Source of the DNA: a virus
Lineage: Duplodnaviria; Heunggongvirae; Uroviricota; Caudoviricetes
Direction: 5' to 3' (one strand)
Virus record (IMG/VR): IMGVR_UViG_2718218309_000006
Length of the DNA: 46,234 nt
Program-made: the position numbers and the translations under genes
The notes under the pieces: generated by a model
The model's input: the letters and a program-made list of their open reading frames with translations, nothing else
What the model was told of the DNA's origin: nothing
The model's database searches: none
Part shown: positions 5,609 to 44,816 of the stretch, in pieces
Layout of the letters: the number at the start of each line of letters is the position of its first letter
How positions within the stretch are numbered: the stretch's first letter is position 1

Positions 5609-5630
5609 CTTTATTGGGGTTATAAATATT

Positions 5631-9128: not shown

Positions 9129-9188
9129 TCCTCACGCTCCATAAACGACAAAACCGCCCGCAGGCGGTTTCACATAAAACATTTTGCA

Positions 9189-11535: not shown

Positions 11536-14093
11536 CGTCCACCTCCGGAGAACAGGCCACCATCACGCATCTGTGTCTGAATTTCATCACGGGCACCCTT
11601 GCGGGCCATGTCATACACCGCCTTCAGAGCAGCCGGACCTATCTGCCCGTTCGTGCCGTCGTTGTTAATCACCACATGGTTATTCTGCTCAAACGTCCCG
11701 GACGCCTGCGACCGGCTGTCTGCCATGCTGCCCGGTGTACCGACATAACCGCCGGTGGCATAGCCGCGCATCAGCCGGTAAAGATTCCCCACGCCAATCC
11801 GGCTGGTTGCCTCCTTCGTGAAGACAAATTCACCACGGTGAACAATCCCCGCTGGCTCATATTTGCCGCCGGTTCCCGTAAATCCTCCGGTTGCAAAATG
11901 GAATTTCGCCGCAGCGGCCTGAATGGCTGTACCGCCTGACGCGGATGCGCCGCCACCAACAGCCCCGCCAATGGCGCTGCCGATACTCCCGACAATCCCC
12001 ACCATTGCCTGCTTAAGCAGAATTTCTGTCATCATGGACAGCACGGAACGGGTGAAGCTGCGCCAGTTCTGCTCACTGCCGGTCAGCATCGCCGCCATAT
12101 TCTGTGCAATACCATCAAAGGTCTGCGTGGCTGCACTTTTTACCTGCGACATACTGTCCGTGGCGCTCTCTTCCCACTCACTCCAGCCGGACTTCAGGCC
12201 TGCCATCCAGCTCCCGCGAAGCTGGTCTTCAGCCGCCCAGGTCTTTTTCTGCTCTGACATGACGTTATTCAGCGCCAGCGGATTATCGCCATACTGTTCC
12301 TTCAGGCGCTGTTCCGTGGCTTCCCGTTCTGCCTGCCGGTCAGTCAGCCCCCGGCTTTTCGCATCAATGGCGGCCCGTTTTGCCCGTTGCTGCTGTGCGA
12401 ATTTATCCGCCTGCTGCGCCAGCGCGTTCAGGCGCTCCTGATACGTAACCTTGTCGCCAAGTGCAGCCAGCTGGCGTTTGTACTCCAGCGTCTCATCTTT
12501 ATGCGCCAGCAGGGATTTCTCCTGTGCAGACAGCTGGCGACGTTGCGCCGCCTCCTCCAGTACCGCGAACTGACTCTCCGCCTTCCACAAATCCCGGCGC
12601 TGCTGGCTGATTTTCTCATTTGCTCCGGCATGCTTCTCCAGCGTCCGGAGTTCTGCCTGAAGCGTCAGCAGGGCAGCATGAGCACTGTCTTCCTGACGAT
12701 CGCCCGCAGACACCTTCACGCCGGACTGTTTCGGCTTTTTCAGCGTCGCTTCATAATCCTTTTTCGCCGCCGCCATCAGCGTGTTGTAATCCGCCTGCAG
12801 GATTTTCCCGTCTTTCAGTGCCTTGTTCAGTTCTTCCTGACGGGCGGTATATTTCTCCAGCGGCGTCTGCAGCCGTTCGTAAGCCTTCTGCGCCTCTTCG
12901 GTATATTTCAGCCGTGACGCTTCGGTATCGCTCTGCTGCTGCGCATTTTTGTCCTGTTGACTCTGCTGCTCAGCCTTCTTTCGGGCGACTTCAAGCGCAA
13001 GACGGGCCTTTTCACGATCATCCCAGTAACGCGCCCGCGCTTCATCGTTAACAAAATAATCATCCTTGCGCAGATTCCAGATATCGTCCGCTTTCTTAAA
13101 CGCGGCCTCTGCCTTAATCAGCATCTCCTGCGCGGTATCAGGACGACCAATATCCAGCACCGCATCCCACATGGATTTGAATGCCCGTGCTGTCCTGTCT
13201 GCCCAGGTTTCCAGCGTGCCCATGTTCTCTTTCAAGCGTCGGGTCTGGTCATCAAACCCTTTCGTTGCGGCCTCGTTCGCCGCCTGCAATGCCCCGGCTT
13301 CATCGCCGGAACGCTGCAACTGAGCAACATACGCAATCTGCTCCGCCGTCACGTTATGGAACTGGCGTGCCATCGCCGTCAGCCCCGACGTCGGGTCTGT
13401 GGTCAGCTTCCCGAAGGCTTCAGCGACCTTGTCCACCTCCACGCCGGATGCAGAGGAGAAACGCGCCACACTCTGGCTGATGGACGCAATCTGAGCCTCA
13501 CCGCTTACCCCCGCCTTAACCAGTGCGCTGAGTGACTCGCTGGTCTGGTTAAACGTCAGCCCTGCCGCCTGCCCGGCTCTGGACAGGACCAGCATACGAT
13601 CTGCCGTCAGTCCCGCCTGATTGCCGGAAAGGACCAGCGTTTTGTTGAAATCGGACAGGGTTGAGTTGCCCTGATACCAGGCATACGCCAGCGCTCCGGT
13701 CGCCACCGCCAGCGAGGTAGCCCCCACCATCGGCAGGGTGATCGCACCGGCAAGCCCCCGGAACATGGGGATCATCCCGCCGAAGGAGTCCTTCACCTGA
13801 CCCCCCTGTTGCAGCAGGATCAGCCACGGACTTTGCCCGCCTGCAAGCTGCGTGGCCACGTCAGTGAACTGCGCAGGCAGCATACGCATGGCGGCTTTAT
13901 ACTGCCCGACGGAAATTCCCGCTTTCTGTGCAGCCAGCGCCTGCCGGTTCATCGACTGTTCAACGACTGCCGCTGTTTTTTTCGCATCACTTTCCGTACC
14001 GGAAAAATGACGCCTGACTCTGGCCATCTGCTCGTCAAATCTGGCCGCATCCAGACTCAAATCAACGACCAGATCGCCTACCGGTTCAGCCAT
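11532..14093 (-). CDS. H: Tail tape measure protein H
   Basis: 853 aa, lambda H length; coiled-coil and Gly-rich C-terminal regions. Confidence 0.92.
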   Translation of the reverse strand: MAEPVGDLVVDLSLDAARFDEQMARVRRHFSGTESDAKKTAAVVEQSMNRQALAAQKAGISVGQYKAAMRMLPAQFTDVATQLAGGQSPWLILLQQGGQVKDSFGGMIPMFRGLAGAITLPMVGATSLAVATGALAYAWYQGNSTLSDFNKTLVLSGNQAGLTADRMLVLSRAGQAAGLTFNQTSESLSALVKAGVSGEAQIASISQSVARFSSASGVEVDKVAEAFGKLTTDPTSGLTAMARQFHNVTAEQIAYVAQLQRSGDEAGALQAANEAATKGFDDQTRRLKENMGTLETWADRTARAFKSMWDAVLDIGRPDTAQEMLIKAEAAFKKADDIWNLRKDDYFVNDEARARYWDDREKARLALEVARKKAEQQSQQDKNAQQQSDTEASRLKYTEEAQKAYERLQTPLEKYTARQEELNKALKDGKILQADYNTLMAAAKKDYEATLKKPKQSGVKVSAGDRQEDSAHAALLTLQAELRTLEKHAGANEKISQQRRDLWKAESQFAVLEEAAQRRQLSAQEKSLLAHKDETLEYKRQLAALGDKVTYQERLNALAQQADKFAQQQRAKRAAIDAKSRGLTDRQAEREATEQRLKEQYGDNPLALNNVMSEQKKTWAAEDQLRGSWMAGLKSGWSEWEESATDSMSQVKSAATQTFDGIAQNMAAMLTGSEQNWRSFTRSVLSMMTEILLKQAMVGIVGSIGSAIGGAVGGGASASGGTAIQAAAAKFHFATGGFTGTGGKYEPAGIVHRGEFVFTKEATSRIGVGNLYRLMRGYATGGYVGTPGSMADSRSQASGTFEQNNHVVINNDGTNGQIGPAALKAVYDMARKGARDEIQTQMRDGGLFSGGGR

Positions 14094-20214: not shown

Positions 20215-23895
<3,681 letters not shown>

Positions 23896-23921
<26 letters not shown>

Positions 23922-24441
23922 TCAGCAACCCCGGTATCAGTTCATCCAGCGCGGCTGCTTTGTTCATGGCTTTGATGATATCCCGTTTCAGGAAATCAAC
24001 ATGTCGGTTTTCCAGTTCCGGAAAACGCCGCTGCACCGACAGGGGGATCCCGTCGAGAATACTGGCAATTTCACCTGCGATCCGCGACAGCACGAAAGTA
24101 CAGAATGCGGTTTCCACCACTTCAGCGGAGTCTCTGGCATTTTTCAGCTCCTGTGCGTCGGCCTGCGCACGCGTAAGTCGATGGCGTTCGTACTCAATAG
24201 TCCCTGGCTGGAGATCTGTCTCGCTGGCCTGCCGCAGTTCTTCAACCTCCCGGCGCAGCTTTTCGTTCTCAATTTCAGCATCCCTTTCGGCATACCATTT
24301 TATGACGGCGGCAGAGTCATAAAGCACCTCATTACCCTTGCCACCGCCTCGCAGAACGGGCATTCCCTGTTCCTGCCAGTTCTGAATGGTACGGATACTC
24401 GCACCGAAAATGTCAGCCAGCTGCTTTTTGTTGACTTCCAT
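23896..24441 (-). CDS. Nu1: Terminase small subunit Nu1
   Basis: 181 aa, MEVNKKQLADIFGASIRTIQNWQEQGMPVLRGGGKGNEVLYD... as lambda Nu1. Confidence 0.93.
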
Positions 24442-27538: not shown

Positions 27539-27753
27539 TATTCACCTCTCGCAGCCTTGCGCTTATCTTCTTTAATCTTGAAATAAAGGTTTGTCAGGTA
27601 CGTCAGCAGGCCAAATACCAGGCTACCCAGCACACCTATTGCTGCCCACTGTGAGGGCGTGACTTTATCGAGCAGCTGTAAAAACCAGTAACCGGCACTA
27701 CCTGCTGAGGTGCCATAGGCGACACCCGTTGTTAACTTATCCATGGATTTCAT
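27538..27753 (-). CDS. S: Pinholin S (phage 21 S21-like) with dual-start motif MKSM
   Basis: 71 aa, [71 protein letters not shown]; SD GAGGTGGGG upstream. Confidence 0.88.
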
Positions 27754-28341
27754 AACCCCACCTCGCAGACAAAGCGGGTGTAAATTGAGGGAATACAACG
27801 TATCGCAAAAAAGCAGAAACGTAACAGACTCGGAGTCAGTGAATAACTCAGGTATTAAGTTATCAGCTAATATCGAGACTCAAAAAATGGAAAAACCAGC
27901 TCGACGGCGGGTTTAAGCTGTGTGACGAAGTAACCACTCTTAACAGCATAACCAATTTTTTACGTACGTAAACCACTGAATGATATTTATGAGAATGCTA
28001 CCGAGTGTTCAAAACACCACCACAAATACATAAGAAAACCTCAACAAATAACCAATAAATAATTTCAGAGGTTATTTTTAGTTGATTTAAATTAAACTGC
28101 CGAATTATAGAACCCCCATAAATAACAGCCATTAATATAAATTAGCTAATAGGTTTATTTTTGTTCAAATAAGAGCCATAAATAGGTTTCGATAGAAAAA
28201 GTTCAGATAAAAATAGAGATCTACTTCACAAATTAAATGAGAAACTAAAACTTACATCTTGAAATAATCACATTGATTAGATGAATATTTATCGCGCAGT
28301 GACATCATTTTTTAATAATAGTTCAAAAAAAAGGGCTCACG

Positions 28342-29424
28342 ATGAAAAAATTAACAGTGGCAATTTCTGCTGTAGCTGCATCAGTACTGATGGCGATGTC
28401 TGCTCAGGCAGCTGAAATTTATAATAAAGACAGTAACAAGCTGGATCTGTACGGGAAAGTTAATGCTAAGCACTACTTCTCCTCTAATGATGCAGATGAT
28501 GGTGATACTACTTATGCCCGTCTTGGCTTCAAAGGTGAAACCCAAATCAACGATCAACTGACTGGTTTCGGTCAGTGGGAATATGAATTCAAAGGCAACC
28601 GCGCTGAATCTCAAGGTTCCTCCAAAGACAAAACCCGTCTTGCATTTGCAGGCCTGAAATTCGGTGACTACGGCTCAATCGATTACGGCCGTAACTACGG
28701 TGTAGCATACGACATCGGTGCGTGGACTGACGTTCTGCCAGAATTCGGTGGCGATACCTGGACCCAAACAGATGTATTCATGACTGGTCGCACCACAGGT
28801 GTTGCAACTTATCGTAACAACGACTTCTTTGGTCTGGTTGATGGCCTGAACTTTGCAGCTCAGTATCAGGGCAAAAATGACCGAAATGAAGTAACTGAAG
28901 CTAATGGCGATGGTTTCGGTTTCTCAACTACTTATGAGTATGAAGGATTCGGCGTGGGTGCAACCTATGCTAAATCTGATCGCACTAATAATCAGGTTAT
29001 CTACGGTAACAACGGTCTGAATGCTTCTGGTCAAAATGCTGAAGTATGGGCAGCTGGTCTGAAATATGATGCGAACAACATCTATCTGGCCACCACCTAT
29101 TCTGAAACCCAGAACATGACTGTTTTTGGTAATAACCATATTGCCAACAAAGCACAAAACTTCGAAGCTGTTGCACAATATCAGTTCGACTTCGGCCTGC
29201 GTCCATCCGTTGCTTACCTGCATTCTAAAGGAAAAGACTTGGGTGTTTGGGGTGATCAGGACCTGGTTGAATATGTTGATGTAGGTGCAACCTATTACTT
29301 CAACAAAAATATGTCCACTTTTGTTGACTACAAAATCAACCTGATTGATAAGAGCGATTTCACGAAAGCATCTGGCGTTGCTACCGATGATATCGTTGCT
29401 GTAGGTATGGTTTACCAGTTCTAA
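28342..29424 (+). CDS. Outer membrane porin, OmpC/OmpF/PhoE family (Lc/NmpC-like phage-borne porin)
   Basis: 360 aa, signal peptide [23 protein letters not shown] then [17 protein letters not shown] and C-terminal ...VAVGMVYQF; opposite strand to the flanking Q and lysis genes. Confidence 0.92.
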
Positions 29425-29562
29425 TTTGATTACTAAAAGATATGTTGTGGGAGGCTTTGCCTCCCCAACATATAAGTGGCTCCCTCAAGCCACTTCCTTT
29501 AGAAGCACAACCTTGCTTCTAACTATACAAACCTTCTGTTATATATTACCCTTTATTTTTGG

Positions 29563-29590
29563 GGGCGTTTCAACGCCCCATTTTTAATAA
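29563..29590 (+). terminator. Rho-independent terminator downstream of the porin gene
   Basis: GGGGCGTT-TCA-ACGCCCC followed by ATTTTTAAT. Confidence 0.55.
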
Positions 29591-29612
29591 CTTTTAGTAA
29601 ATAATTGGCGTA

Positions 29613-29996
29613 TTAATTAGAGTTATTAACAACGATATCCATCTCTAACCGGATATCTAATGCCATTAACATCCCTTCAATTATGCCCTCAGCCTTCTGT
29701 AACCTTTTCCCGATATAACCATCAGAGCAGCAATGCTTACCTGCCAGTGACATGAATGTCATACCGACTACATAATAATCTACTAATAAATCGTGCAAAT
29801 CGCTGTTGTTCTTTTTCAGACGGGCCATGCACCCGCAAATGATCATCGCGTCATCGTCACAACATTGCGGGCGAGATTTTACTTTTGAAGTAATTAATCC
29901 CTTAAAACCGGCGGCAATGGACGACCAGGTCACATCTTCATGATTATTAGCCGCCCACGCTCCCCAACGCTCAAGAACCATCTGAATATCACGCAT
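29613..29996 (-). CDS. Q: Late antiterminator Q (phage 82 / DLP12 QuuD type)
   Basis: 127 aa from [50 protein letters not shown]; matches DLP12 QuuD as recalled. Confidence 0.88.
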
Positions 29997-30081
29997 CAAC
30001 TTACTCCACAAAAATCAGACCAGAACGCCAATTACAAGCAAAAATCAACGAAACAGTATTAGTTGATTGTTATCTCTGACT

Positions 30082-30204
30082 TCATACTCCTGCTCCTGTC
30101 AGGGTTTTGGCGTAATTCTTCAGTATTCGGTAATCGGTCAAAACAGAACCGGGGAAACGATATAAGCGCAGACGCCCCCAGCGGTGGCGAAGACGTTCTG
30201 CCAT
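30082..30204 (-). CDS. Small ORF in the ylcG position between rusA and Q
   Basis: 40 aa, MAERLRHRWGRLRLYRFPGSVLTDYRILKNYAKTLTGAGV; not in ORF track (under 60 aa). Confidence 0.3.
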   Translation of the reverse strand: MAERLRHRWGRLRLYRFPGSVLTDYRILKNYAKTLTGAGV

Positions 30205-30218
30205 ATAAAACTCAAACA

Positions 30219-30581
30219 TCATTCATTCCCCATTTCGGTGATGGTCAGTTCCAGCCTCCCACCTTTGGTAACAGGCATCTTCACAACGCGGTAATCAACG
30301 ACCTGAGCATCATCCAGCCAGAAACCTGCTTTAGTGAGTGCGTCAAAAGCGGCTTTTTGCAGATTATCCAGGTCACGGCGACGGCGATCCGGCATGTGGC
30401 ACTCAATGCGGATTTTCACAGGCATAGCCAGGCCGATATCCAGCATTGCGTTTTTAATGATTCGGGCGACGTTATCGCGGTATGCCTGCCCCTCTGCGCT
30501 GACGTGCGTGCGCCCGCGATTATGGCGGTAATAGCGATTATTGCTCGGAGGCCAGGGTAATGTGATGCTGTAGGTATTCAC
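30219..30581 (-). CDS. rusA: Holliday junction resolvase RusA
   Basis: 120 aa, [54 protein letters not shown]... Confidence 0.92.
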
Positions 30582-30868
30582 GCCTTAATAACCCCCTCTT
30601 TCAGCCAGATAACCTGTGTTCTCGCCATACCTTCCAGCGCGCATTCTTTTGCATATGCAGCATCGACAAAATGTGTGCGGCGGTCGATTTCGTCGTGGCA
30701 GGCAGAACATGCAATGGTGGCAATCAGGTCTGGCGGTTTGGTACCGGTGCCGCACAATCCAGTCAGCCGGATATGTGCCAGTACAGACGTTTCAGGGTTG
30801 CCATTACATACGCCAGGGATTCTTACCTGGCATTCCCGACTACGCGCTGCTTTTCTCAAATCAGCCAT
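30578..30868 (-). CDS. YbcO-like protein (DUF1364, Cys-rich putative nuclease)
   Basis: 96 aa from [42 protein letters not shown]; start overlaps the ninE end. Confidence 0.8.
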
Positions 30869-31031
30869 GATTCCTCCTTGCTGCCAGTCGCAACCATTTT
30901 TTATCAACCAGGCTGGCGGTATATCCGAGCAGTGTTGGTATTTCGGAAGGCTTCAGCTCCGGTTTACGCTTACGACGATCTGGTACTCTGTAGATGTGTC
31001 CGTTCATGACACGAATAAGCGGTGTAGCCAT
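30861..31031 (-). CDS. ninE: NinE
   Basis: 56 aa, [56 protein letters not shown]; not in ORF track (under 60 aa); TAATG overlap with the ybcN stop. Confidence 0.7.
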   Translation of the reverse strand: MATPLIRVMNGHIYRVPDRRKRKPELKPSEIPTLLGYTASLVDKKWLRLAARRNHG

Positions 31032-31486
31032 TACGCCTCCTGCTTGTCGCGGAGCAGCTGGAACTCGCAGCTCTGCGGAATAGTCAGGTGGCAGCCAATA
31101 TTCACCGCCCAGGCTTCAACCTTACACAGGAAGACATACATCTCTCCGGTATCAAGATCGGAGGTATGGCGTAACGACTGGATAGTGGTGATATCACCGG
31201 TTACGACATCAACCAGGTCTTTGGTTTCATAACCGAGATATGTGTGTTTGAGAGCATCTTTTACCCAAGCTGGAGTAGCGAACGTTTTACCCCTGCTGAT
31301 GAGGTATTCACTGATTTCGCTGTACCACATGTGGCTGAGTGCATTCTGGGAAAGACTGCGTTTCTCACGCCACGGTTTAAGCACCATGCGAAAGCATTTG
31401 CCCTCCTCCAGATAAGGCTGGATCTGCCGACCGATAGCGGTGAAGTTACCGCGATGTAATTTGATGCCATCTTGTGGGAGATTCAC
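31031..31486 (-). CDS. NinB-family recombination protein (YbcN-like)
   Basis: 151 aa, [58 protein letters not shown]; resembles DLP12 YbcN as recalled. Confidence 0.8.
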
Positions 31487-31680
31487 GCTTCACCTCCGCA
31501 GAGGTCAAACGCTGGATACAATATATCGCAGGTGCATTTCTGCATCTGTGAATGGAGAAGATAGGTTGGTTTGTATGTGCGCATAAACGTCCCCGTTTAG
31601 CGCAGAAGTCACCGGAGTTGTTCAGGCTCCAATGGCATGATTATGGCTGGTTGATTATTGGAAATCAAATGTGCTGAAAA

Positions 31681-32190
31681 TTAGTCTGCCAAGTCTTCCT
31701 CAGTCGCAACTGGGTAATTCCAAATATCAAAAAAAGCTATAGCCTCCTGCCATTTGCTCCATAAGTTATCAAGTACTTGTGTAGGTTCCGTACTTTTAAA
31801 AACAGAATCAGCCGCATCACCGTTATGAACTTCCTCGTACAGTTCCATTATTAGCAGATTAACAAAGTACTGTTTCAACATTAATGCCTGATTACCTTCT
31901 TTCTGCTGGCTATCCTGCTTGATGATCTCCATCGCCCGTACTAGGCACCTGATGATATCCGCTGCATCATTAACGCTCCATTCAGATCCGCGCTTATCTT
32001 TAGCTGATGAATTGGCTCTCTCAGCGCAAGCCTTTAAAGACTCATAAAGGTAAACTCTATTTTGTAGCTGCAGCGCTTTTTTTGACGTGTACCAACTTGC
32101 AAGCGCCGACCCCGCTGCGGCTAATGTGCCAAACGCAGAAATACCTGCTGCTATTGCACTTAAGTCGGCACTGTCAAAGTTCCACATCAT
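31681..32190 (-). CDS. Hypothetical protein, unknown function, with N-terminal hydrophobic segment
   Basis: 169 aa; DLSAIAAGISAFGTLAAAGSALASWY likely TM/signal anchor, acidic C-terminus; AT-rich flanks of about 190 and 150 bp; no family recognised. Confidence 0.5.
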   Translation of the reverse strand: MMWNFDSADLSAIAAGISAFGTLAAAGSALASWYTSKKALQLQNRVYLYESLKACAERANSSAKDKRGSEWSVNDAADIIRCLVRAMEIIKQDSQQKEGNQALMLKQYFVNLLIMELYEEVHNGDAADSVFKSTEPTQVLDNLWSKWQEAIAFFDIWNYPVATEEDLAD

Positions 32191-32508
32191 CGTTACACCT
32201 TATATAAATACCCCTCAGTAATATCCAATAAGGTATGTGCACAATCAATATAATTTTATCCGTATCGGCACATAGCGATTTGAAGGCTACTGGTAATGGT
32301 ATATTTTAGATTATATCGTCCAGTTTACAGCACCCGTATTTTATGAAATGGACTCGCATATTACCCAAAAAATGCCAGCACTTCCGTCATCGTAGAATGC
32401 TGGCAGTATTTCTAACTAGTGACTTTATTGGAACAGATTCTGACGGAAATATGGTAACACTCGACTCCACTTATCATCCAGCCACGGCTGGAATTTTACA
32501 TGTGCCGT

Positions 32509-32748
32509 TTATCTGGCGAGGATTGCTCGCGCTCTGTTGAGTATCTGGGGATATTCATGCTCGATAGAAGTAAAGCGGCCGGCTTCGCGGTGCTCCGCAA
32601 CCTGAAGTAGTGGAGTAACGTTCTGGCAGGCAGTTAACATCACATCACCTGCTCGCCATAACCAAGCACGTGCACAAAGTTTGTTATCAGTGAATTGTTT
32701 TGTGATTGGGTATTGTTGAACTGCTAGAACGAGAACGCCAGCATCCAT
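32509..32748 (-). CDS. Hypothetical small ORF, possibly a gene remnant
   Basis: 79 aa, no recognisable family; lies between the orphan ORF and the recombinase gene. Confidence 0.25.
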   Translation of the reverse strand: MDAGVLVLAVQQYPITKQFTDNKLCARAWLWRAGDVMLTACQNVTPLLQVAEHREAGRFTSIEHEYPQILNRARAILAR

Positions 32749-32859
32749 TGGCAGTCCCTATAGTAAAACCATAGCTCAGGACGCTTCGTTCAGGATAGAT
32801 AATTTTATTGTACTTACCTAACTTTCTTACTATAGCACGGTTGAAAAAGTGATTATTAC

Positions 32860-34386
32860 TCAAAAATAAACCTCACCATCAACCATATATTTGAGAGTAC
32901 TTATCGCCTGCTGGGCGGATATTGTTTTCATTAAAGGATAGTGTTTAAAAACAATGCCATTCATAAAATAGATATCACAGGTTTTATTATCTGTATTGAT
33001 TATGATTTTTTCGAATGTTTTATAGGCAAGTGTACGACATAGCTCTCGCCCATTTTTACTGGTTAAGTCAATAGCATGAAAATCACCAAGTGAACTCACC
33101 GCTTTACTCTTCAAAGTTTTTAATGATACAGAAGCCCTTCGTAATTCCTTATCTAATACTCTGATTTTTTCTGCTATAGCGGTAACTTCAGGCGCAACAG
33201 ATAATGCAGCAATTAAATTATTAATTTTCATCTGGAGCTCAATAATTTTCAACTCTAAAGTTTCATTAGCATCTTTCTTGTTTTCAACTGGTTGGATTTT
33301 ACTACAATTAAAAAGCAACTCATTAATGATATTATAATCAACCAAATCTCTCTTTATTGATGGCCTGTCACATCGATGCAGTCTTCTCATCGGACAAACA
33401 TAATAGCCATGCAAACTTCCAGATACCGCATGAACAATCATGGTATTACCACAAGCCTCGCACTTCATAACTGTTCGAAGTAGATTTATCAACATAGGAT
33501 TTTTGCTACTATTGCTAATACCAAAAGGTGCCAACCGAATTTCCTGCACAGCGTAAAACAAATCATCTGATATGACTCTGGGATAATAGCCAGCGATTTC
33601 ACTTATTCCTTTACCTCTTGCACGATATGAAGGTACGCATATACCTATCAGAGCTTTATTCGCTAATAATTTTTCAATTACAGAAGGTCCCCATGCACTT
33701 TCTTTTCCTGAGAAATTCTTTACAGCATGATCATTTAAATACTTGGCTATTGCATTCAATGAGCGCCTTTCCATCCTGAGTTTAAAAATTAGCTCAATAG
33801 TTTTCACCCTGTCGGGGTCTGGAACAAAAGCCGTTCTTTTGTCATCCAATGAGAGCCATCTCGGACAAGACGCCGTCATAATCGTGCCTGACTCCAGTGC
33901 ATCCTGCCGTTTTTTCTTCCATGATAATTTAACCCGACTTGACTTTATCTCGCTTTCTTCATTTGCCCTTTGTGCTATAAGTATGGCTTTTATTAATGAA
34001 TATGGCTCATTCAATGAGTCAATATTATAGACTGTATTATCGCAAAGAGTTATAACATCAATACCGTGATTCAAAATCAATTTCAGACGCTCAATCGCTT
34101 CACCGACTTTTTCTCTTGAAAGTCTGTCCAGACTTTCAACTAACAATGTAGTCCCTGGCAATATATAACCATGTTCTATAGCATCTAAAAATTCCGAAAA
34201 AGCTCCTGATTGTGCATGCTTTCCATTGAATGCGCTTAACCCCAAATCTTCATACGTTACGGTATCAAGGTAATAATCACTATTTACCTTTAGCCATTCA
34301 GTAATAAGCCTTCTCTGGCGGTTTAATGAATCACCAGACATCTGACCTGGTGATGAAAATCGCATATATGCTATGGCTTTTTTCAT
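32860..34386 (-). CDS. Large serine recombinase (YbcK-like)
   Basis: 508 aa; resolvase-type N-terminus AIAYMRFSSPGQ...LLVESLDRLSR, recombinase domain, Cys-rich zinc-ribbon (CEACGNTMIVH...YYVCPMRRLHRCDRP), coiled-coil C-terminus. Confidence 0.85.
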   Translation of the reverse strand: MKKAIAYMRFSSPGQMSGDSLNRQRRLITEWLKVNSDYYLDTVTYEDLGLSAFNGKHAQSGAFSEFLDAIEHGYILPGTTLLVESLDRLSREKVGEAIERLKLILNHGIDVITLCDNTVYNIDSLNEPYSLIKAILIAQRANEESEIKSSRVKLSWKKKRQDALESGTIMTASCPRWLSLDDKRTAFVPDPDRVKTIELIFKLRMERRSLNAIAKYLNDHAVKNFSGKESAWGPSVIEKLLANKALIGICVPSYRARGKGISEIAGYYPRVISDDLFYAVQEIRLAPFGISNSSKNPMLINLLRTVMKCEACGNTMIVHAVSGSLHGYYVCPMRRLHRCDRPSIKRDLVDYNIINELLFNCSKIQPVENKKDANETLELKIIELQMKINNLIAALSVAPEVTAIAEKIRVLDKELRRASVSLKTLKSKAVSSLGDFHAIDLTSKNGRELCRTLAYKTFEKIIINTDNKTCDIYFMNGIVFKHYPLMKTISAQQAISTLKYMVDGEVYF

Positions 34387-34641
34387 GGTGACACCTGCTA
34401 AAGTATGCTTTTATAAACCTTAGTGGTGAGATATGATTTTTGTTTAATTTTTATTTAAAAAGACAATTAAGGTCACATTATCTTAAATATACAACAATAA
34501 TCGTATTGCAATTTTCTTACACCATAATCCTGAAAGCACAAAAGAATGAATAAAAACTAAAGACATTAACAAAAAGCATAAAACGAGGCCCATATAAATA
34601 TACGAACCTCCATATTTTAGTCGTTTAAAAACAAATTATTT

Positions 34642-34974
34642 TTAATGTGGTGTGCTTCGTGACAATAAATTAATAACCAACACACCGGCACAAATCAACA
34701 TCATGCCTATAATGGCTGGCAGGTCCAACCGTTGGCCGAAAAATCCCCATGATAGTAAGCTAATCAGGACAATACCGACTCCTGACCAGATAGCATAAGC
34801 AATCCCTGTAGGAATATAAGCCAGCGTCTGAGCTAATAACCAGAATGATGCACAATAACAAATAATTGTACCAACAGATGGCCATAACCGTGTAAAACCT
34901 TCTGAAAACTTCATTAAGGTTGTACCAATGACCTCTGCAAGTATTGCACCACCAAGATAAATATAAGGATTCAT
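34642..34974 (-). CDS. emrE: Small multidrug resistance efflux transporter EmrE (SMR family)
   Basis: 110 aa from MNPYIYLGGAILAEVIGTTLMKFSEGFTRLWPSVGTIICYCASFWLLAQTLAYIPTGIAYAIWSGVGIV; four TM helices. Confidence 0.92.
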   Translation of the reverse strand: MNPYIYLGGAILAEVIGTTLMKFSEGFTRLWPSVGTIICYCASFWLLAQTLAYIPTGIAYAIWSGVGIVLISLLSWGFFGQRLDLPAIIGMMLICAGVLVINLLSRSTPH

Positions 34975-34989
34975 AGCATATTCTTTCCT

Positions 34990-35024
34990 GTTCAAACTGG
35001 AGAGAATTGTACTACAGTTTGAAC
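34990..35024. repeat. Perfect 10-bp inverted repeat (GTTCAAACTG / CAGTTTGAAC, 15-bp spacer) between ren and emrE
   Basis: Read directly from the sequence, just upstream of the emrE start. Confidence 0.6.
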
Positions 35025-35041
35025 TCAACTCACCTGTTTCA

Positions 35042-35344
35042 TCATTGTGTACCCATTGATGTTCTTTTATATACCCTCAATACCCGTTTCATCGCGGCAC
35101 TCTGGCGACACTCCTTAAAAATCAAATTCGTGCTCACCTTTCCTTCCCATTCTTCTCTGGTAGCGAACCGATAATACACCGTTCGCCAGACCTTACCATC
35201 AACGACCAGGATTCCTGCCCGCGCCATTTTAGCCGCAGCCTGATTTATGCTGGTTACCGTTGCGCCTGTTACCGCGGCAACGTCCTGCGCACAGAATTTC
35301 TTATGAGTCCCCAGGTAATGAATAATTGCCTCTTTGCCCGTCAT
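35042..35344 (-). CDS. ren: Ren protein
   Basis: 100 aa, MTGKEAIIHYLGTHKKFCAQDVAAVTGATVTSINQAAAKMARAGILVVDGKVWRTVYYRFATREE. Confidence 0.88.
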   Translation of the reverse strand: MTGKEAIIHYLGTHKKFCAQDVAAVTGATVTSINQAAAKMARAGILVVDGKVWRTVYYRFATREEWEGKVSTNLIFKECRQSAAMKRVLRVYKRTSMGTQ

Positions 35345-36042
35345 ACCCTTGCTCCTTTCAGCCCAAACTTAGCTTTGATTTCTGCGATCTTCGCCAGAGC
35401 CTGTGCACGATTTAGAGGTCTACCGCCCATAACAGGAAGTTGTTTTACTGGTTCAGGTATCGTCTCACCACGGTTAATTCGCGCTGTCATACAGGTCAGT
35501 TCATCGGCAGCCTTGCGCCGTAATTCCGCGTCAGTCAGCGCATTGGCCCGCATGTTCTGGTACAAGTTGGTAACCAACCAGTAATGCGCGTTCGATTTCC
35601 ACGGATAAGACTCTGCATCCGGATACAGGCCACGCTTCCGGCAATACTCGTAAACCATATCAACCAGCTCGCTGACGTTTGGCAGCCCGGCGTTAACAGA
35701 TGCTTCTTCCCGGCACCAGGCGACAAACTGCCCGGGTGATGGCAGGAATGGTCGATTCTGCCGACGGGCTACGCGCATTCCAGCGTTAACCTGTTCCATT
35801 GTGGTGATCCCGTTTTCCCGGAAAGCCAGAACCCACTGGCGGCGGATTTCGTTCAGTTCATTCTGGTCACGGTTAGCCAGGCTCGCCGGGAAAGTTGCCA
35901 GTAACTGGCTGAACACACCGTTGATGATCTGCGCTACCTGCTGTACCTGTGGCTTTTCGTCGTACTGTTCCGGCATGTTGTTGGCGATCCGGCGCATCTG
36001 CTCACAGTCAAAGTTAACCATCTGTGCGGCGATGTTTTTCAT
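35341..36042 (-). CDS. P: Replication protein P (DnaB helicase loader)
   Basis: 233 aa, MKNIAAQMVNFDCEQMRRIANNMPEQYDEKPQVQQVAQIINGVF... as lambda P. Confidence 0.93.
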   Translation of the reverse strand: MKNIAAQMVNFDCEQMRRIANNMPEQYDEKPQVQQVAQIINGVFSQLLATFPASLANRDQNELNEIRRQWVLAFRENGITTMEQVNAGMRVARRQNRPFLPSPGQFVAWCREEASVNAGLPNVSELVDMVYEYCRKRGLYPDAESYPWKSNAHYWLVTNLYQNMRANALTDAELRRKAADELTCMTARINRGETIPEPVKQLPVMGGRPLNRAQALAKIAEIKAKFGLKGARV

Positions 36043-36968
36043 AGCTCCACCCCGTAAATCCAGTCAGTGTTCGTCAGGTCGAGTTTTGGTTTGCCGGCTA
36101 TCACGCCAGCCTGTTGCTTGTTTCGGTTGATTTCGAGCTGGGTCCACTTGTCGCGGAGTTTGGCCGGACTTAGCACGTTACCGGACCAGAAGTTGTCCTG
36201 GCATGCCCAGCGGAACAGCACACACATGTCGCGGTGGTTACGTCCGTCACGTTCACGCATCAGGCGGATATCGTTAGCCCACCCTGCAAAATTCGGTTTT
36301 CTGGCTGATGGCGCGATGGTCTTCACCATGTCAAACATCCACTCTGCGGCGGTCAGGTCTTCTGCTGTCCCCCACTTGCTGCCGCTCTGAATTGCAGCAT
36401 CCGGTTTCACCACAGGAAGATCGTTTTCTGGTTGGTCAGAGGATTCGCCAGAATTCTCGGACGAAAAAGGTTTTATATTGTCTTTTGTTAGTTTGTCTTT
36501 TGTGTTTACCTGATTCGGGTAAACGCCTTTACCTGATGTGGGTAAACTTTTTTTACCTGATTCAGGTAAATTTACCTCTTTCAGGTAAACTTTATTTTTC
36601 TTACCTGATTCGGGTAATGTTGACCATTCACTGACCACATTATTAATGCCGGTATTCCGCCCGCTCTGAATAAAAATCCCACGCTTTACCAGAACACTTT
36701 TTGCAGCAGAACACTTGTGCGGCAATATCCCGGTTAATTCGGAAAGTTGCTCGTTGCTAACCCAATCCAGTTTTTTATTAAAGCCATATGTTTTGCGCAT
36801 GACAGCCAGAAAGACCAGAAGCTGGTGCTGTGTTAATCCGGCCAGCATCACAGCTTCCAGCAACTCATTTGCAATGCGCGTATAACCATCATCGAGATCT
36901 GCCACGCGCGGCTCCTTTTGTGCCGCATCCGGCACTGGAAAATTGAATATCTCAGCAGTGTTTGCCAT
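36039..36968 (-). CDS. O: Replication initiator O (lambda-like C-terminal domain, divergent N-terminal ori-binding domain)
   Basis: Preferred start MANTAEIFNF (SD GGGAGGA upstream) aligning with lambda MTNTAKILNF; C-terminal half ...SENSGESSDQPENDLPVVKPDAAIQSGSKWGTAEDLTAAEWMFDM matches lambda O as recalled; ORF track extends to 37058. Confidence 0.88.
   Translation of the reverse strand: MANTAEIFNFPVPDAAQKEPRVADLDDGYTRIANELLEAVMLAGLTQHQLLVFLAVMRKTYGFNKKLDWVSNEQLSELTGILPHKCSAAKSVLVKRGIFIQSGRNTGINNVVSEWSTLPESGKKNKVYLKEVNLPESGKKSLPTSGKGVYPNQVNTKDKLTKDNIKPFSSENSGESSDQPENDLPVVKPDAAIQSGSKWGTAEDLTAAEWMFDMVKTIAPSARKPNFAGWANDIRLMRERDGRNHRDMCVLFRWACQDNFWSGNVLSPAKLRDKWTQLEINRNKQQAGVIAGKPKLDLTNTDWIYGVEL
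36506..36617. repeat. Replication origin iterons: five 17-bp palindromic repeats TTACCTGAT-TC-GGGTAA inside O, with adjacent AT-rich tract (36461-36505)
   Basis: Repeats at 36506-36522, 36529-36545, 36553-36569, 36572-36588, 36601-36617; arrangement like lambda ori but different iteron sequence. Confidence 0.8.
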
Positions 36969-37054
36969 AATTCCTCCCGCAATGAGTGTGTTACGATTTG
37001 CACCTGAAAGTCGGTTCTGTTCCAGCAGACCGGCTTTCGCCATTTCTGAACCTG

Positions 37055-37594
37055 TCATATCGCCCCCAGCATGGTAGTAACCATCGCCATCAATGGACCA
37101 GCCAGATCTGGGTCCACACGAAACATCGACACAATACCTTCACTAATTTCCTTCAGTTTCTGGTGGCGTGGTGCGTTGAGAATGACAGCCTGTTTTGCCT
37201 CACTGAGTTCCTTTTCCATTTCAGCCAACCTAGCCATGAAGCTATCCTGCTCAACCAGGTAACCGCGATATTCCAGCGGTAGTACCGCCAGAATTGCCGG
37301 GGTCAGTTCACGCACGTTATTTCGGTATTTTTCAGAATCGAATTTGTTATCGAGGAAGCGGAACAGCTTCTGGCGTGCACGGCTGACATCATCAGGGAAA
37401 TCGATGGTGCCGCCGCCCTGCTCCCGATACTCATTCACAATGAGTGTGGCAACGACATCCTGATTATCTACAGCCGACCAGGCGCGGACGGCATCACGGA
37501 TTTTTTCGTGGCCTGGCACCTGTTTTGTTTGAGAACGATTTATCACCGCAGTCGGGCTAAATCCGCTAGTCTGTTGGTATGTAAGTGGTTGCAT
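37055..37594 (-). CDS. YdaT-like protein in the cII position
   Basis: 179 aa; ...NEYREQGGGTIDFPDD...LTPAILAVLPLEYRGYL... resembles Rac YdaT as recalled; SD AAGGAG upstream. Confidence 0.6.
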   Translation of the reverse strand: MQPLTYQQTSGFSPTAVINRSQTKQVPGHEKIRDAVRAWSAVDNQDVVATLIVNEYREQGGGTIDFPDDVSRARQKLFRFLDNKFDSEKYRNNVRELTPAILAVLPLEYRGYLVEQDSFMARLAEMEKELSEAKQAVILNAPRHQKLKEISEGIVSMFRVDPDLAGPLMAMVTTMLGAI

Positions 37595-43549: not shown

Positions 43550-43768
43550 ATGTACTTGACACTTCAGGAGTGGAACGCACGCCAGCGACGCCCAAGAAGC
43601 CTTGAAACAGTTCGTCGATGGGTACGCGAGTGCAGGATATTCCCTCCTCCGGTTAAGGATGGAAGAGAGTATCTGTTCCACGAATCAGCGGTAAAGGTTG
43701 ACTTAAATCGACCAGTAACAGGTAGCCTTTTGAAGAGGATCAGAAATGGGAAGAAGGCGAAGTCATGA
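43550..43768 (+). CDS. xis: Excisionase Xis
   Basis: 72 aa, MYLTLQEWNARQRRPRSLETVRRWVRECRIFPPPVKDGREYLFHESAVKVDLNRP... Confidence 0.95.
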   Translation: MYLTLQEWNARQRRPRSLETVRRWVRECRIFPPPVKDGREYLFHESAVKVDLNRPVTGSLLKRIRNGKKAKS

Positions 43769-44816
43769 GCGCCGGGATTTACCCCCTAACCTTTATATAA
43801 GAAACAATGGATATTACTGCTACAGGGACCCAAGGACGGGTAAAGAGTTTGGATTAGGCAGAGACAGGCGAATCGCAATCACTGAAGCCATACAGGCCAA
43901 CATTGAGTTATTTTCAGGACACAAACACAAGCCTCTGACAGCGAGAATCAACAGTGATAATTCCGTTACGTTACATTCATGGCTTGATCGCTACGAAAAA
44001 ATCCTGGCCAGCAGAGGAATCAAGCAGAAGACACTCATAAATTACATGAGCAAAATTAAAGCAATAAGGAGGGGTCTGCCTGATGCTCCACTTGAAGACA
44101 TCACCACAAAAGAAATTGCGGCAATGCTCAATGGATACATAGACGAGGGCAAGGCGGCGTCAGCCAAGTTAATCAGATCAACACTGAGCGATGCATTCCG
44201 AGAGGCAATAGCTGAAGGCCATATAACAACAAACCCTGTCGCTGCCACTCGCGCAGCAAAATCAGAGGTAAGGAGATCAAGACTTACGGCTGACGAATAC
44301 CTGAAAATTTATCAAGCAGCAGAATCATCACCATGTTGGCTCAGACTTGCAATGGAACTGGCTGTTGTTACCGGGCAACGAGTTGGTGATTTATGCGAAA
44401 TGAAGTGGTCTGATATCGTAGATGGATATCTTTATGTCGAGCAAAGCAAAACAGGCGTAAAAATTGCCATCCCAACAGCATTGCATGTTGATGCTCTCGG
44501 AATATCAATGAAGGAAACACTTGATAAATGCAAAGAGATTCTTGGCGGAGAAACCATAATTGCATCTACTCGTCGCGAACCGCTTTCATCCGGCACAGTA
44601 TCAAGGTATTTTATGCGCGCACGAAAAGCATCAGGTCTTTCCTTCGAAGGGGATCCGCCTACCTTTCACGAGTTGCGCAGTTTGTCTGCAAGACTCTATG
44701 AGAAGCAGATAAGCGATAAGTTTGCTCAACATCTTCTCGGGCATAAGTCGGACACCATGGCATCACAGTATCGTGATGACAGAGGCAGGGAGTGGGACAA
44801 AATTGAAATCAAATAA
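43746..44816 (+). CDS. int: Integrase Int (tyrosine recombinase, lambda type)
   Basis: 356 aa, MGRRRSHERRDLPPNLYIRNNGYYCYRDPRTGKEFGLGRDRRIAITEAIQANIELFSGHK... Confidence 0.95.
   Translation: MGRRRSHERRDLPPNLYIRNNGYYCYRDPRTGKEFGLGRDRRIAITEAIQANIELFSGHKHKPLTARINSDNSVTLHSWLDRYEKILASRGIKQKTLINYMSKIKAIRRGLPDAPLEDITTKEIAAMLNGYIDEGKAASAKLIRSTLSDAFREAIAEGHITTNPVAATRAAKSEVRRSRLTADEYLKIYQAAESSPCWLRLAMELAVVTGQRVGDLCEMKWSDIVDGYLYVEQSKTGVKIAIPTALHVDALGISMKETLDKCKEILGGETIIASTRREPLSSGTVSRYFMRARKASGLSFEGDPPTFHELRSLSARLYEKQISDKFAQHLLGHKSDTMASQYRDDRGREWDKIEIK

Follow-up and report, generated by a model that had tools for sequence, protein, structure and literature searches.

Does the intact large serine recombinase gene in the AT-rich interval of a lambda-like prophage mark a module that the recombinase moves, or does it occupy a slot whose contents are exchanged by other means? 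The interval, positions 31487-35041 of a 46,234-nt viral window (the whole stretch of DNA analysed, a 100% match to E. coli 55989, NC_011748.1), is placed by RefSeq annotation and the list of open reading frames (ORFs) in a lambdoid prophage, between ren and ylcH-ybcN (ninB). A first-pass annotation, made from the sequence alone, described it as a single, independently acquired low-GC island with emrE, a recombinase gene and two orphan ORFs, possibly mobilised by the recombinase and possibly carrying defence functions. We judge it probable that the interval is a swappable moron/defence hotspot of a lambda-like prophage, filled by three cassettes with separate histories and exchanged by means other than the recombinase YbcK.

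Composition and gene content of the interval

All annotated genes of the slot and of its ren and ybcN flanks lie on the minus strand (RefSeq annotation, ORF list), and the coordinates first assigned to emrE, the 508-aa recombinase and the 169-aa ORF between ren and ninB agree with RefSeq and the ORF list (Table 1). The tyrosine integrase noted in the prophage is likewise present, at the prophage end beside ybhC (~43746-44816 of the window; RefSeq annotation). A windowed GC calculation, proposed in the first-pass annotation, gives 38.8% for 31487-35041 and 50.8% for the whole window, supporting the conclusion that this DNA is compositionally foreign. The dip is carried by emrE and ybcK (32736-35077, 36.1% GC), a segment that ranks second from the bottom among 878 windows of 2342 bp, the lowest of which starts at 32751. 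The remainder is closer to the average, with 43.0% GC at 31657-32735 and 48.2% at 31487-31656. The AT-richness of the proposed island thus holds, but its extent does not, only 32736-35077 being strongly AT-rich.

Table 1. Features of the slot and its flanks (window coordinates)
Feature	Position	Strand	Basis
ybcN (NinB/Orf family; left flank)	31031-31486	-	RefSeq, ORF list, Pfam, phrog
ylcH-like 33-aa ORF, overlapping ybcN start	31483-31584	-	RefSeq
Left slot boundary upstream of ylcH-ybcN	31608-31668	-	putative sigma-70 promoter TTGATT-17-CATAAT
orf169, 169 aa	31681-32190	-	phrog_1779 E 1e-102
rha' pseudogene, C-terminal ~100 codons of Rha/antirepressor gene	32425-32748	-	RefSeq pseudogene; P22_AR_C E 2e-12
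ybcK-unit tail	32736-32859	-	breakpoint and sequence comparisons
ybcK, intact large serine recombinase (by sequence), 508 aa	32860-34386	-	Pfam Resolvase/Recombinase/Zn_ribbon_recom; phrog_95 integrase E 3e-120
AT-rich spacer and ybcK leader, 26.7% GC	34387-34641	-	
ylcJ-like pseudogene inside ybcK leader region	34486-34593	-	
Hairpin with T run, intrinsic-terminator-like, 3' of emrE	34585-34610	-	
AT-rich 21-bp imperfect palindrome over emrE stop codon	34625-34645	.	
emrE, SMR multidrug/quaternary-cation efflux pump, 110 aa	34642-34974	-	Pfam PF00893 E 2e-35, phrog_1395
35-bp palindrome in emrE leader: two 10-nt perfectly complementary arms, 15-nt spacer	34990-35024	.	unique in window, 0 expected by chance
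ren (right flank)	35042-35344	-	phrog_142 Ren-like, RefSeq, ORF list

The sequence of EmrE fits that of an SMR transporter (~110 aa, four transmembrane helices, Multi_Drug_Res domain, membrane-embedded Glu14). Specifically, Multi_Drug_Res (PF00893) covers residues 3-94, and E14 is present in MNPYIYLGGAILAEV. The protein shows one non-synonymous difference from K-12 EmrE, and emrE has a dN/dS of 0.01-0.1. The cassette proper spans ~34634-35051 and stands alone in L007 at 34634-35051; at its ybcK side, 34625-34645 is the junction at which the ybcK unit, ybcL or a hydrolase gene starts after emrE. The palindrome in the leader, which matched no Rfam family, is altered at only one of its 35 nt in DA33137, though emrE there has a dS of ~0.4, and is probably a regulatory element of emrE. 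DA33137 is the one locus examined of a ybcK-less emrE allele class (90-95% identity) found in 2284 genomes. This textbook transporter is carried as a phage cassette, its alleles fall into two old classes, and the leader palindrome is conserved. emrE has been listed among the morons of phage Perceval and reported as induced in DMEM (PMC9928086). It has its own terminator-like hairpin as well as the leader palindrome, and we take it for a lysogen-expressed moron that benefits the host.

YbcK can be assigned to the large serine recombinases by its predicted catalytic (PF00239, residues 4-161, E 9e-19), recombinase (PF07508, 191-284, E 2e-14) and zinc-ribbon (PF13408, 302-357, E 8e-8) domains. The motif YxRxSxxxQ corresponds to Y7-R9-S11-Q15, and R9, S11, Q15, D87, R88, R91, C309, C312, C331 and C339 are invariant in an alignment of 17 YbcK homologues; a phmmer search of YbcK against PDB sequences gave no match at E <= 0.001. 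The gene is intact and, with a dN/dS of 0.06-0.08 at a dS of ~0.17, under strong purifying selection. A truncated recombinase, named in the first-pass annotation as an observation that would count against its proposal, is not what we find: the catalytic residues are invariant and dN/dS is ~0.07. Beyond the stop codon, the unit continues into a tail (32736-32859) that is common to Turner, Perceval and, in part, O157, is absent from K-12 and the rha-bearing phages, and contains a 9-bp inverted repeat (32758-32766/32827-32835). In the homologous K-12 region, a Rho/NusG-dependent terminator, t_ybcK, lies upstream of ybcK (PMC4150792).

The two ORFs called orphans both have relatives. The 79-aa ORF (32509-32748) is the front part of rha', ending at an internal stop at 32509-32511, and its P22_AR_C match identifies it as a remnant of a rha/antirepressor pseudogene. 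Alignment with the complete Rha proteins, which have 203 aa in PhiR26_1 and 249 aa in PhiR5_1 (RefSeq coordinates), shows that rha' lacks the 5' ~100 codons. A full-length Rha/antirepressor (Phage_pRha plus P22_AR_C) was rejected, as only P22_AR_C is present, an internal stop interrupts the frame and RefSeq lists a pseudogene. The 169-aa ORF belongs to phrog_1779 (Table 1). It has a hydrophobic N-terminal segment, probably a membrane segment, followed by an all-helical domain (AF2 pLDDT 69.5). Its family is small (15 clusters; 35 representatives among 1.84 billion proteins) and has 28 invariant alignment columns; orf169 is present in 180 of 5426 genomes. The position of the family is fixed just upstream of ninB/DUF1367, also in distant lambdoid phages.

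The slot is filled differently in close relatives

More than 12 different fillings were found between P/ren and ylcH-ybcN, within flanks of 93-98% identity. In a spread sample of 60 E. coli records, used for filling frequencies, the slot holds ybcL-ybcM, an alpha/beta hydrolase, nothing, a TagO-like gene, HEPN, a YajG lipoprotein, SIR2, DUF4041/SNIPE or PRTase plus NADAR, and in some records ren abuts the NinB-Dam nin block; in CT265, ren lies directly against ninB. Among the alternative cargo, the profile matches to PD-Lambda-1 (E 2e-198) and SIR2 (Aga_SIR2/PDC-S65, E 5e-63) are strong, and those to PRTase_III-A (2e-8), PDC-M28A (2e-7) and PDC-M42C (5e-8) are weaker. With conserved flanks, hypervariable content and anti-phage genes among its fillings, the slot is a prophage accessory/defence hotspot. 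The variability beside the recombinase that had been suspected is therefore borne out across K-12, free phages and E. coli prophages, which do not share identical content. The comparison with K-12 DLP12 also stands: in the alignment, homology covers 35652-32851 and 31656-29386 at 96-98% nucleotide identity, with ybcL-ybcM between the two blocks in K-12.

The same comparisons divide the 3.5 kb into separately exchanged cassettes and do not bear out one independently acquired module. In PhiR26_1 and PhiR5_1, rha-orf169 is kept and emrE-ybcK is absent, with PD-lambda-1/SNIPE and a full-length rha in PhiR26_1 where emrE-ybcK would be. In K-12, Perceval and O157, emrE-ybcK is kept and rha'-orf169 is absent; elsewhere, the place of rha'-orf169 is taken by ybcL-ybcM, an alpha/beta hydrolase or nothing. 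DA33137 and F467 carry emrE without ybcK.

Exchange junctions cluster at the outer edges and are staggered beside ybcK

Breakpoints were mapped by detailed alignment of ~15 variant loci. At the left edge, all variants rejoin at 31644-31669, where a putative promoter has its -35 element at 31668-31663 and its -10 element at 31645-31640. The adjacent repeat 31608-31636 is a "possible regulator-binding site" in the phage 82 record X92588, and the left boundary thus coincides with a promoter/operator annotated in that phage. At the right edge, breakpoints fall at 35069-35099, within the last ~10 codons of ren, and Ren C-termini diverge between variants; variants without ren have theirs at the P stop (35316-35341). 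Outer-edge breakpoints thus gather at gene ends or at the promoter. Those beside ybcK are scattered, at 32851, 32794, 32735/32736 (from the rha side), 32642 and 32443. Staggered breakpoints on the ybcK side together with clustered outer ones form a pattern of nested replacement, not that of a single recombination site. PhiR26_1 and strain 02E060, which have stacked cassettes, carry the ylcH region (31507-31624) in duplicate, as a linker from one cassette to the next.

The slot lies in the rightward early operon, with O-P-ren on one side and the ylcH-ybcN(ninB)-ninE-ybcO-rusA-Q block on the other. Ordinary recombination, both homologous and illegitimate, would swap cassettes among lambdoid phages at a few conserved junctions: the 3' end of ren or P, a point ~12 nt past the stop codon of emrE, and the ylcH promoter/operator. 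The third cassette would be a wrecked rha-orf169 pair in which orf169 stays intact; the joining of the ybcK unit may have cost rha its 5' half, with the stop codon arising later. According to the literature, the Rho-dependent terminator in its leader keeps ybcK silent in the lysogen. YbcK would then probably be made only under N-antiterminated early read-through, in which case the selected function would serve the phage, not the host. As a counterpoint, an intact, strongly constrained recombinase needs some function.

Possible defence by orf169 and the origin of ybcK

A rival reading, which we regard as unlikely though not negligible, is that orf169, possibly with YbcK, shields either the lysogen or an infecting phage from competitors. 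The same slot in other strains holds PD-lambda-1/SNIPE, SIR2 and HEPN/PRTase-type genes, and in 02E060 a HEPN gene pair sits downstream of rha, at the position of orf169 here. In addition, orf169 shares a hydrophobic N-terminal segment with several exclusion proteins and SNIPE (PMC13190303). PADLOC at E <= 0.1, however, returned no match for YbcK, orf169, rha' or EmrE. The proposed defence cargo is thus supported by PD-Lambda-1 and SIR2 in the slot of other strains but not by the four products here; since none of them matches a defence model, orf169 might at most have such a role.

Homologues of YbcK with 40-60% identity lie at or near prophage ends, in Atlantibacter by ssrA and in Yersinia with a prophage on either side, and others follow tail-fibre genes in Ewingella and Pantoea. 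These positions, the phrog_95 "integrase" match and the truncated rha that the ybcK unit abuts are consistent with ybcK being the leftover integrase of an element or phage once inserted in an ancestral lambdoid rha, its remainder deleted and the gene kept as a second integrase (alternative attachment sites) or by linkage. We find this improbable. Linkage alone does not yield a dN/dS of ~0.07 over a dS of ~0.17; no prophage permuted at ybcK was seen, and those examined integrate at argU or by ybhC with a tyrosine integrase; and no 5' half of rha was found beyond the far end of the ybcK unit. Moreover, Atlantibacter lambdoids also carry homologues of 60% identity in their nin region, which makes this location an old and recurring one and not a one-off accident, and the gene at prophage ends may itself be cargo of a tail-fibre-distal moron site.

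Evidence on movement by YbcK

ybcK is present in 1423 of 5426 genomes, 1397 of them with near-complete copies (roughly one in four complete E. coli genomes), and at least 1370 of these 1397 (>=98%) lie in the same ren...ybcN context; movement is therefore not seen. No direct or inverted repeats of >=14 nt were found at the ends of 31487-35077 or 32736-35077. The interval has no such repeats, its breakpoints beside ybcK are staggered and >=98% of ybcK copies share a single context, which does not fit mobilisation by the recombinase as first proposed. Of the att-like palindromes suggested alongside, short AT-rich ones are present (34625-34645; the 9-bp repeat within 32758-32835), but no motif is conserved in the upstream or downstream flanks of 18 ybcK family members.

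The arrangement in phage Perceval speaks for movement. Its 2073-bp ybcK unit lies between perfect 15-bp direct repeats CATTAAAAATAATTT that run from the final codon of emrE through its stop to 9 nt beyond, and F467 equals Perceval minus exactly this unit. Flanking direct repeats of ~15 bp are also found at SCC elements, which are moved by Ccr serine recombinases. Furthermore, DA33137 and F467 lack ybcK in independent arrangements, and their junctions in the 34625-34645 palindrome are no more than ~3 nt apart. The Perceval repeat and F467 could also reflect a palindromic site at which DNA is inserted or excised site-specifically, and YbcK might accordingly be thought to insert or excise its unit, with or without emrE, at the AT-rich palindrome after the emrE stop. 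That YbcK is intact and constrained is in line with such activity, as is a ybcK-type gene that is all that two different prophage positions share in Atlantibacter (83% aa identity; DNA homology only from -68 to 75 nt short of the stop).

Nevertheless, we consider this very unlikely. The repeat exists only in the Perceval arrangement; within 2 mismatches, it is single-copy in the window, K-12, Turner and O157. Because part of rha' is included in the Perceval unit, the distal end of that unit is not a fixed end of an element, and distal junctions vary between variants. Neither the flanks of the 18 family members, with no common motif, nor the single context of >=98% of E. coli copies favours it, and the repeat is equally explained if a hydrolase cassette once joined to emrE took along a few of its last bases. 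A broader version, to which we give little credence, would make YbcK-type recombinases an Enterobacterales family of solitary enzymes that recur in temperate-phage hotspots (the E. coli/Atlantibacter lambdoid nin region, tail-fibre-distal prophage ends, plasmids), act on short AT-rich palindromes beside their own gene, such as the one over the emrE stop, and drive cassette turnover. If true, the recombinase would insert and excise itself and adjacent DNA, as a driver rather than a passenger. An SCC-like or Tn4451-like mobilised island was rejected, as no element ends bracket it and the ybcK-side junctions are staggered, as was one element at different targets with precise empty sites, the alternatives being replacements with F467 versus Perceval the sole exception.

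Relation to known systems

The slot is a known kind of prophage moron/defence hotspot and, on our reading, part of ordinary phage mosaicism. Lambdoid phages have mosaic module boundaries, and the lambda nin region (ren-ninA-ninB...) is dispensable, being removed by the nin5 deletion. The slot lies in the same neighbourhood, with non-essential genes exchanged at gene-end boundaries; to our knowledge, lambda has no emrE, ybcK, rha or orf169 at this position. Large serine recombinases that move DNA include the phiC31 and Bxb1 integrases, Ccr of SCCmec and TnpX of Tn4451. YbcK resembles them in its three-domain architecture, catalytic serine and arginines, and a gene by a resistance-type gene; unlike them, it comes with no att sites, element ends or variable targets that we could find, and its gene lies away from the prophage end.

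The P2/P4-type hotspots (PMC9122126; Vassallo et al. 2022, PMC9519451) likewise have conserved phage genes flanking a hypervariable slot of known and candidate anti-phage genes, with turnover among close relatives. They belong to another phage family, whereas the present slot lies in an early operon between replication and nin genes, and its copy here is without a recognisable defence system. No description of the lambdoid P/ren-ninB slot was found in PMC9122126 or PMC9519451. Our main reading is routine: it adds a further example of how such phage slots are filled and corrects two "orphan" calls. The hotspot from P/ren to ylcH-ninB has sharp junctions and could be mined for new anti-phage genes, as was done for P2 and P4. 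For YbcK of E. coli K-12, strongly constrained and intact, present in viable phages and silent in the lysogen, the question of its substrate is well posed, and candidate sequences are named above.

Among functional lambdoid phages, Perceval, 4A7, Lambda_4C10, 1W/3W, Turner and PhiR68_2 have the same slot with emrE-ybcK (flanks 95-97% identity), PhiR26_1 and PhiR5_1 have the same slot and flanks without it, and the filling beside ybcK differs from phage to phage. The carriers of emrE-ybcK form plaques or can be induced, so the cassette does not preclude a working phage. K-12 DLP12 has the same order (ren/emrE/ybcK/cargo/ylcH-ybcN-ninE-ybcO-rusA-ylcG-quuD), and its YbcK is also 508 aa. Its cargo after emrE-ylcJ-ybcK is ybcL-ybcM (1858 bp), in contrast to rha'-orf169 (1194 bp) here. 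DLP12 lies at argU and its ren is interrupted by IS3, whereas the present prophage lies beside ybhC, has an uninterrupted ren and still contains most of the lambda-like genes for early, head and tail functions.

Gene content and base composition of the ren-ybcN slot

The window is an identical match to E. coli 55989 (NC_011748.1), in which RefSeq annotates a lambda-like prophage integrated beside ybhC, with a tyrosine integrase and an excisionase at the prophage end and the right-early operon on the window's minus strand. O, P, ren and every gene of the slot share one orientation. Two ORFs of the slot had been called orphans in a first-pass annotation, and neither is one: the 79-aa ORF (32509-32748) carries P22_AR_C as its sole domain in a family scan and lies within the P22AR-C pseudogene (hereafter rha'), while the 169-aa ORF (orf169) belongs to a known phage protein family.

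Coordinates of the early-operon genes and of the repeats discussed in the text (window positions unless a locus is named)
Feature	Position	Strand	Source and remarks
O	36039-37058	-	RefSeq
P	35341-36042	-	RefSeq
ren	35042-35344	-	RefSeq
emrE	34642-34974	-	RefSeq; SMR protein by family scan
ybcK	32860-34386	-	RefSeq; Resolvase, Recombinase and Zn_ribbon_recom domains; matches phrog_95 'integrase'
rha' (P22AR-C pseudogene)	32425-32748	-	RefSeq
orf169 (169-aa hypothetical)	31681-32190	-	RefSeq; full-length phrog_1779 match, E 1e-102
ylcH-like 33-aa ORF	31483-31584	-	RefSeq
ybcN/ninB	31031-31486	-	RefSeq; followed by ninE, ybcO, rusA, ylcG, quuD
CATTAAAAATAATTT, window	34633-34647		
CATTAAAAATAATTT, Perceval (L003)	3528-3542 and 5601-5615		
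Corresponding stretch of F467 (L109)	4608-4642 region		
DUF1367 5'-end copies, Atlantibacter prophage (L016)	7652-7851 and 10633-10831		

The foreign character ascribed to the interval 31487-35041 is borne out by its GC content, 38.8% versus 50.8% for the window. The contrast is carried by 32736-35077 (36.1% GC), which, ranking second lowest of 878 segments, is for practical purposes the 2.3-kb segment with the lowest GC content in the window; emrE is 40.5%, ybcK 36.5% and the spacer between them 26.7% GC. With 43.0% GC at 31657-32735 and 48.2% at 31487-31656, the reported 3.5 kb of AT-rich DNA comes down to a 2.3-kb core, the other 1.1 kb being just mildly AT-rich.

Low-GC DNA at 27700-28500 (about 30-33% GC), the other strongly AT-rich part of the prophage, precedes an intact ompC/nmpC-type porin gene at about 28343-29425 (+), between Q and the lysis genes. 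This is another accessory-gene (moron) site of the prophage; in K-12 the homologous porin gene, nmpC, is interrupted by IS5. The terminase large-subunit gene (window about 21998-23922; 10999-12923 of the RefSeq stretch, L001) is annotated by RefSeq as frameshifted. Although it has a nearly complete gene set, the prophage may therefore be defective.

The slot is assembled from separable cassettes

We aligned the window to fourteen related loci. In K-12 DLP12 and phage PhiR68_2, homology runs from 35652/36900 to 32851 and resumes from 31656 leftwards, with ybcL-ybcM filling the gap. Homology extends down to 32642 in phage Perceval, followed by an alpha/beta hydrolase gene, down to 32443 in phage Turner, followed by other small ORFs, and down to 32794 in O157:H7, where the slot is almost empty. 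Phages PhiR26_1 and PhiR5_1 share 29500-32735 (orf169 and the 3' part of rha) and again the sequence from 35078/35069 rightwards, without emrE-ybcK, the place of which is taken in PhiR26_1 by PD-lambda-1 (SNIPE), a small ORF and a full-length Rha of 203 aa. ybcK is also missing from strain DA33137, where ybcL-ybcM directly follows emrE in a remnant beside fliE, and from strain F467, in which emrE is followed by the hydrolase gene. It follows from these arrangements that emrE, the ybcK unit (ybcK with its leader and tail) and the rha/orf169 pair have been inherited separately.

The comparison confirms that the slot beside the recombinase is variable, its contents ranging from ybcL-ybcM to almost nothing. 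It speaks against a single island mobilised by the recombinase: the three parts are separable, and we found nothing that YbcK moves. The first-pass observation is real but over-lumped, and the locus adds one more arrangement to a known type of prophage accessory/defence hotspot and is made of genes already annotated.

Three of the joints between cassettes recur. The ybcN-side joint lies at 31644-31669 in all thirteen variants that have the ylcH-ybcN block, and coincides with a putative sigma-70-like promoter (TTGATT-17-CATAAT) and with a 'possible regulator-binding site' that the record of phage 82 places upstream of orf33/orf151. The ren-side joints lie at 35069-35099, within the last ten codons of ren, giving each variant a different Ren C-terminus; in variants lacking ren the joints are at 35316-35341, the P stop. 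The third joint is located ~12 nt past the emrE stop, in a 21-bp AT-rich imperfect palindrome (34625-34645). The ybcK-side joints, in contrast, are staggered (32851, 32794, 32735/32736, 32642 and 32443), and this nesting is most simply read as successive replacements that would have eroded an older emrE-ybcK-rha'-orf169 arrangement, of which the 55989 version retains more than any other. In addition, the ylcH region (window 31507-31624) is present in two copies in PhiR26_1 (L004 3960-4039) and strain 02E060 (L011 5630-5747), phages with two stacked cassettes, the extra copy lying between the ren-proximal cargo and rha. This duplication shows that the ylcH region acts as a linker at which recombination stacks cassettes.

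ybcK is intact, and its site-specific mobilisation is unlikely

The recombinase is intact. ybcK is 508 codons long in all six copies compared and has a dN/dS of 0.06-0.08 at a dS of about 0.17. The catalytic residues R9, S11, Q15, D87, R88 and R91 and the four zinc-ribbon cysteines are invariant in 17 homologues down to 41% identity. The gene occurs in 1423 of 5426 complete genomes (near-complete in 1397), and its carriers include plaque-forming or inducible phages. Taken together, intact length, purifying selection, invariant catalytic residues, prevalence and carriage by viable phages indicate, at the sequence level, that ybcK is a working gene.

At least 1370 of the 1397 near-complete copies sit in one context, ren...ybcN. 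Direct and inverted repeat scans of 30900-35500, with fine scans of three intergenic regions, returned only chance-length matches as candidate terminal repeats or att sites. When the 400-bp flanks on either side of 18 YbcK-family genes were compared all against all by blastn, similarity appeared solely between near-identical loci, and no flank motif was conserved. A search of PDB sequences with YbcK gave no hits at E <= 0.001, and no characterisation of ybcK as a recombinase was found in the literature searched, mostly at title/abstract level. Replacement of ybcK alleles at the level of the gene was rejected, as mismatch density along 32851-36000 is patchy without sharp edges at the gene.

One observation, made in Perceval, favours site-specific insertion or excision of the ybcK unit: perfect 15-bp direct repeats stand on both sides of the unit (2073 bp). 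The repeat, CATTAAAAATAATTT, corresponds to the final codon of emrE, the stop codon and the next 9 nt. F467 has the Perceval sequence without the unit (junction sequence CATTAAAAATAATTTCTTTTG), either as an exact repeat-to-repeat deletion or as an empty form. However, the window, K-12, Turner and O157 have no second copy; the repeat, present only in Perceval among the arrangements checked, was rejected as a general element end. The Perceval 'unit' also contains a piece of rha', and we consider site-specific movement improbable. For the same two reasons, we read the repeat as the likely relic of an earlier direct joining of a hydrolase cassette to emrE. The K-12 and DA33137 junctions share just an AATAAT-type 6-nt match.

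YbcK homologues occupy accessory sites in other Enterobacterales

YbcK homologues at 40-61% identity are found across Enterobacterales, again at accessory sites. In the nin region of Atlantibacter lambdoid prophages (L016 and L021), a homologue (60% identity) accompanies KGG and DinI genes, and the block is flanked by direct 200-bp copies, 85% identical, of a DUF1367 gene's 5' end; the same phage has a 646-aa SIR2 gene next to P. This nin region is a parallel hotspot in another genus. Other homologues lie at tail-fibre-distal prophage ends (in Atlantibacter, next to ssrA; in Yersinia, beside an autotransporter and a P2-like prophage; and in Ewingella and Pantoea), on plasmids and in an ICE-like region. 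Specifically, in another Atlantibacter prophage, L014, the recombinase (8001-9530) follows a tail-fibre assembly gene, 540 bp from the ssrA 3' end (tmRNA 10070-10432), and may be either that prophage's integrase or part of its cargo. Two Atlantibacter copies at different positions, including this one, are 83% identical in protein; their DNA homology is confined to a stretch that begins 68 nt upstream of the start and ends 75 nt short of the stop. Because homology stops near the gene ends, the shared module is the gene alone.

Expression of ybcK and emrE

In K-12, ybcK is preceded by an untranslated region with a Rho/NusG-dependent terminator, and the mRNA of the gene is increased in rho and nusG mutants (PMC4150792). 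The homologous spacer in the window is 96% identical to that of K-12 and lies downstream of an intrinsic-terminator-like hairpin closing the emrE unit. From the terminator homology, the hairpin and the orientation shared with O-P-ren, we infer that ybcK would be made chiefly on read-through of N-antiterminated early transcription, which fits a phage-level function.

PMC9928086 lists emrE as one of the morons of Perceval that are induced in DMEM medium. An emrE allele class at 90-95% identity is present in 2284 of 5426 genomes, and the single locus of this class examined, DA33137, lacks ybcK; the DA33137 and prophage-borne emrE differ by a dS of about 0.4, with a dN/dS of 0.01-0.02. Induction in DMEM and retention without ybcK fit host-level selection. 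The DA33137 locus (L007; NZ_CP029579.1 around 456.8-458.8 kb), lying between yedF/IS200 and fliE, is what remains of an old prophage and consists of emrE-ybcL-ybcM.

In the emrE leader, 16-50 nt before the start codon, there is a 35-bp palindrome (34990-35024; 10-nt perfect arms, 15-nt spacer). It has no further copy within the window and no match in Rfam, and 1 of its 35 nt is changed in an allele whose synonymous sites are ~40% diverged. It is possibly an unrecognised regulatory element of emrE.

orf169 is a conserved nin-region gene

At its N-terminal end the orf169 product has a hydrophobic segment; the body of the protein is all-helical. It belongs to a small family, with 15 clusters at 90% identity and 35 representatives in a set of 1.84 billion proteins. 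The gene directly precedes ninB or DUF1367 in every case, in E. coli phages as in three distant lambdoid contigs, and has the orientation of the early operon; its upstream neighbours vary (Rha, DUF551 or small ORFs). orf169 is a genuine and conserved gene of the lambdoid nin region. Searches against domains, defence models and folds gave no domain, no defence model and no informative fold match; our best guess, with low confidence, is an early function acting on the membrane or a role in exclusion.

Other fillings of the slot include defence genes

We queried complete E. coli genomes with the joined flanks of the ybcK-to-ylcH cargo slot (Q-ybcN plus ybcK-emrE-ren-P); further fillings come from a spread sample of the hits and from loci fetched from that sample. 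They comprise Rha with HEPN and a partner gene; SIR2 with rha'; a phosphoribosyltransferase-like gene with NADAR; a TagO-like gene with two hypotheticals; a YajG-family lipoprotein; an acyltransferase with a lipoprotein (PhiR30_1); and a classical nin block (strain CT265: ren, 73 bp, ninB, Dam methylase gene, ninE, ninX). None of the window's four encoded products matches a defence model. Several of the alternative fillings match anti-phage models, PD-Lambda-1 (E 2e-198) and SIR2 (E 5e-63), with weaker hits to PRTase_III-A and PDC candidates, in line with the general nature first proposed for the slot. PD-lambda-1 was later characterised as a membrane nuclease, SNIPE, which cuts the DNA of incoming phages (PMC13190303). 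No description of the lambdoid hotspot was found in the literature searched.

In E. coli OkiPb01694 (L100 3552-5185), the slot holds the phosphoribosyltransferase-like gene, NADAR, a HolE-like fragment and a 160-aa ORF, and in strain GDAR2-2 (L101 3480-5363) it holds the TagO-like gene and hypotheticals of 108 and 181 aa. Both fillings gave weak matches or none with PADLOC and are candidates for new defence or counter-defence genes.
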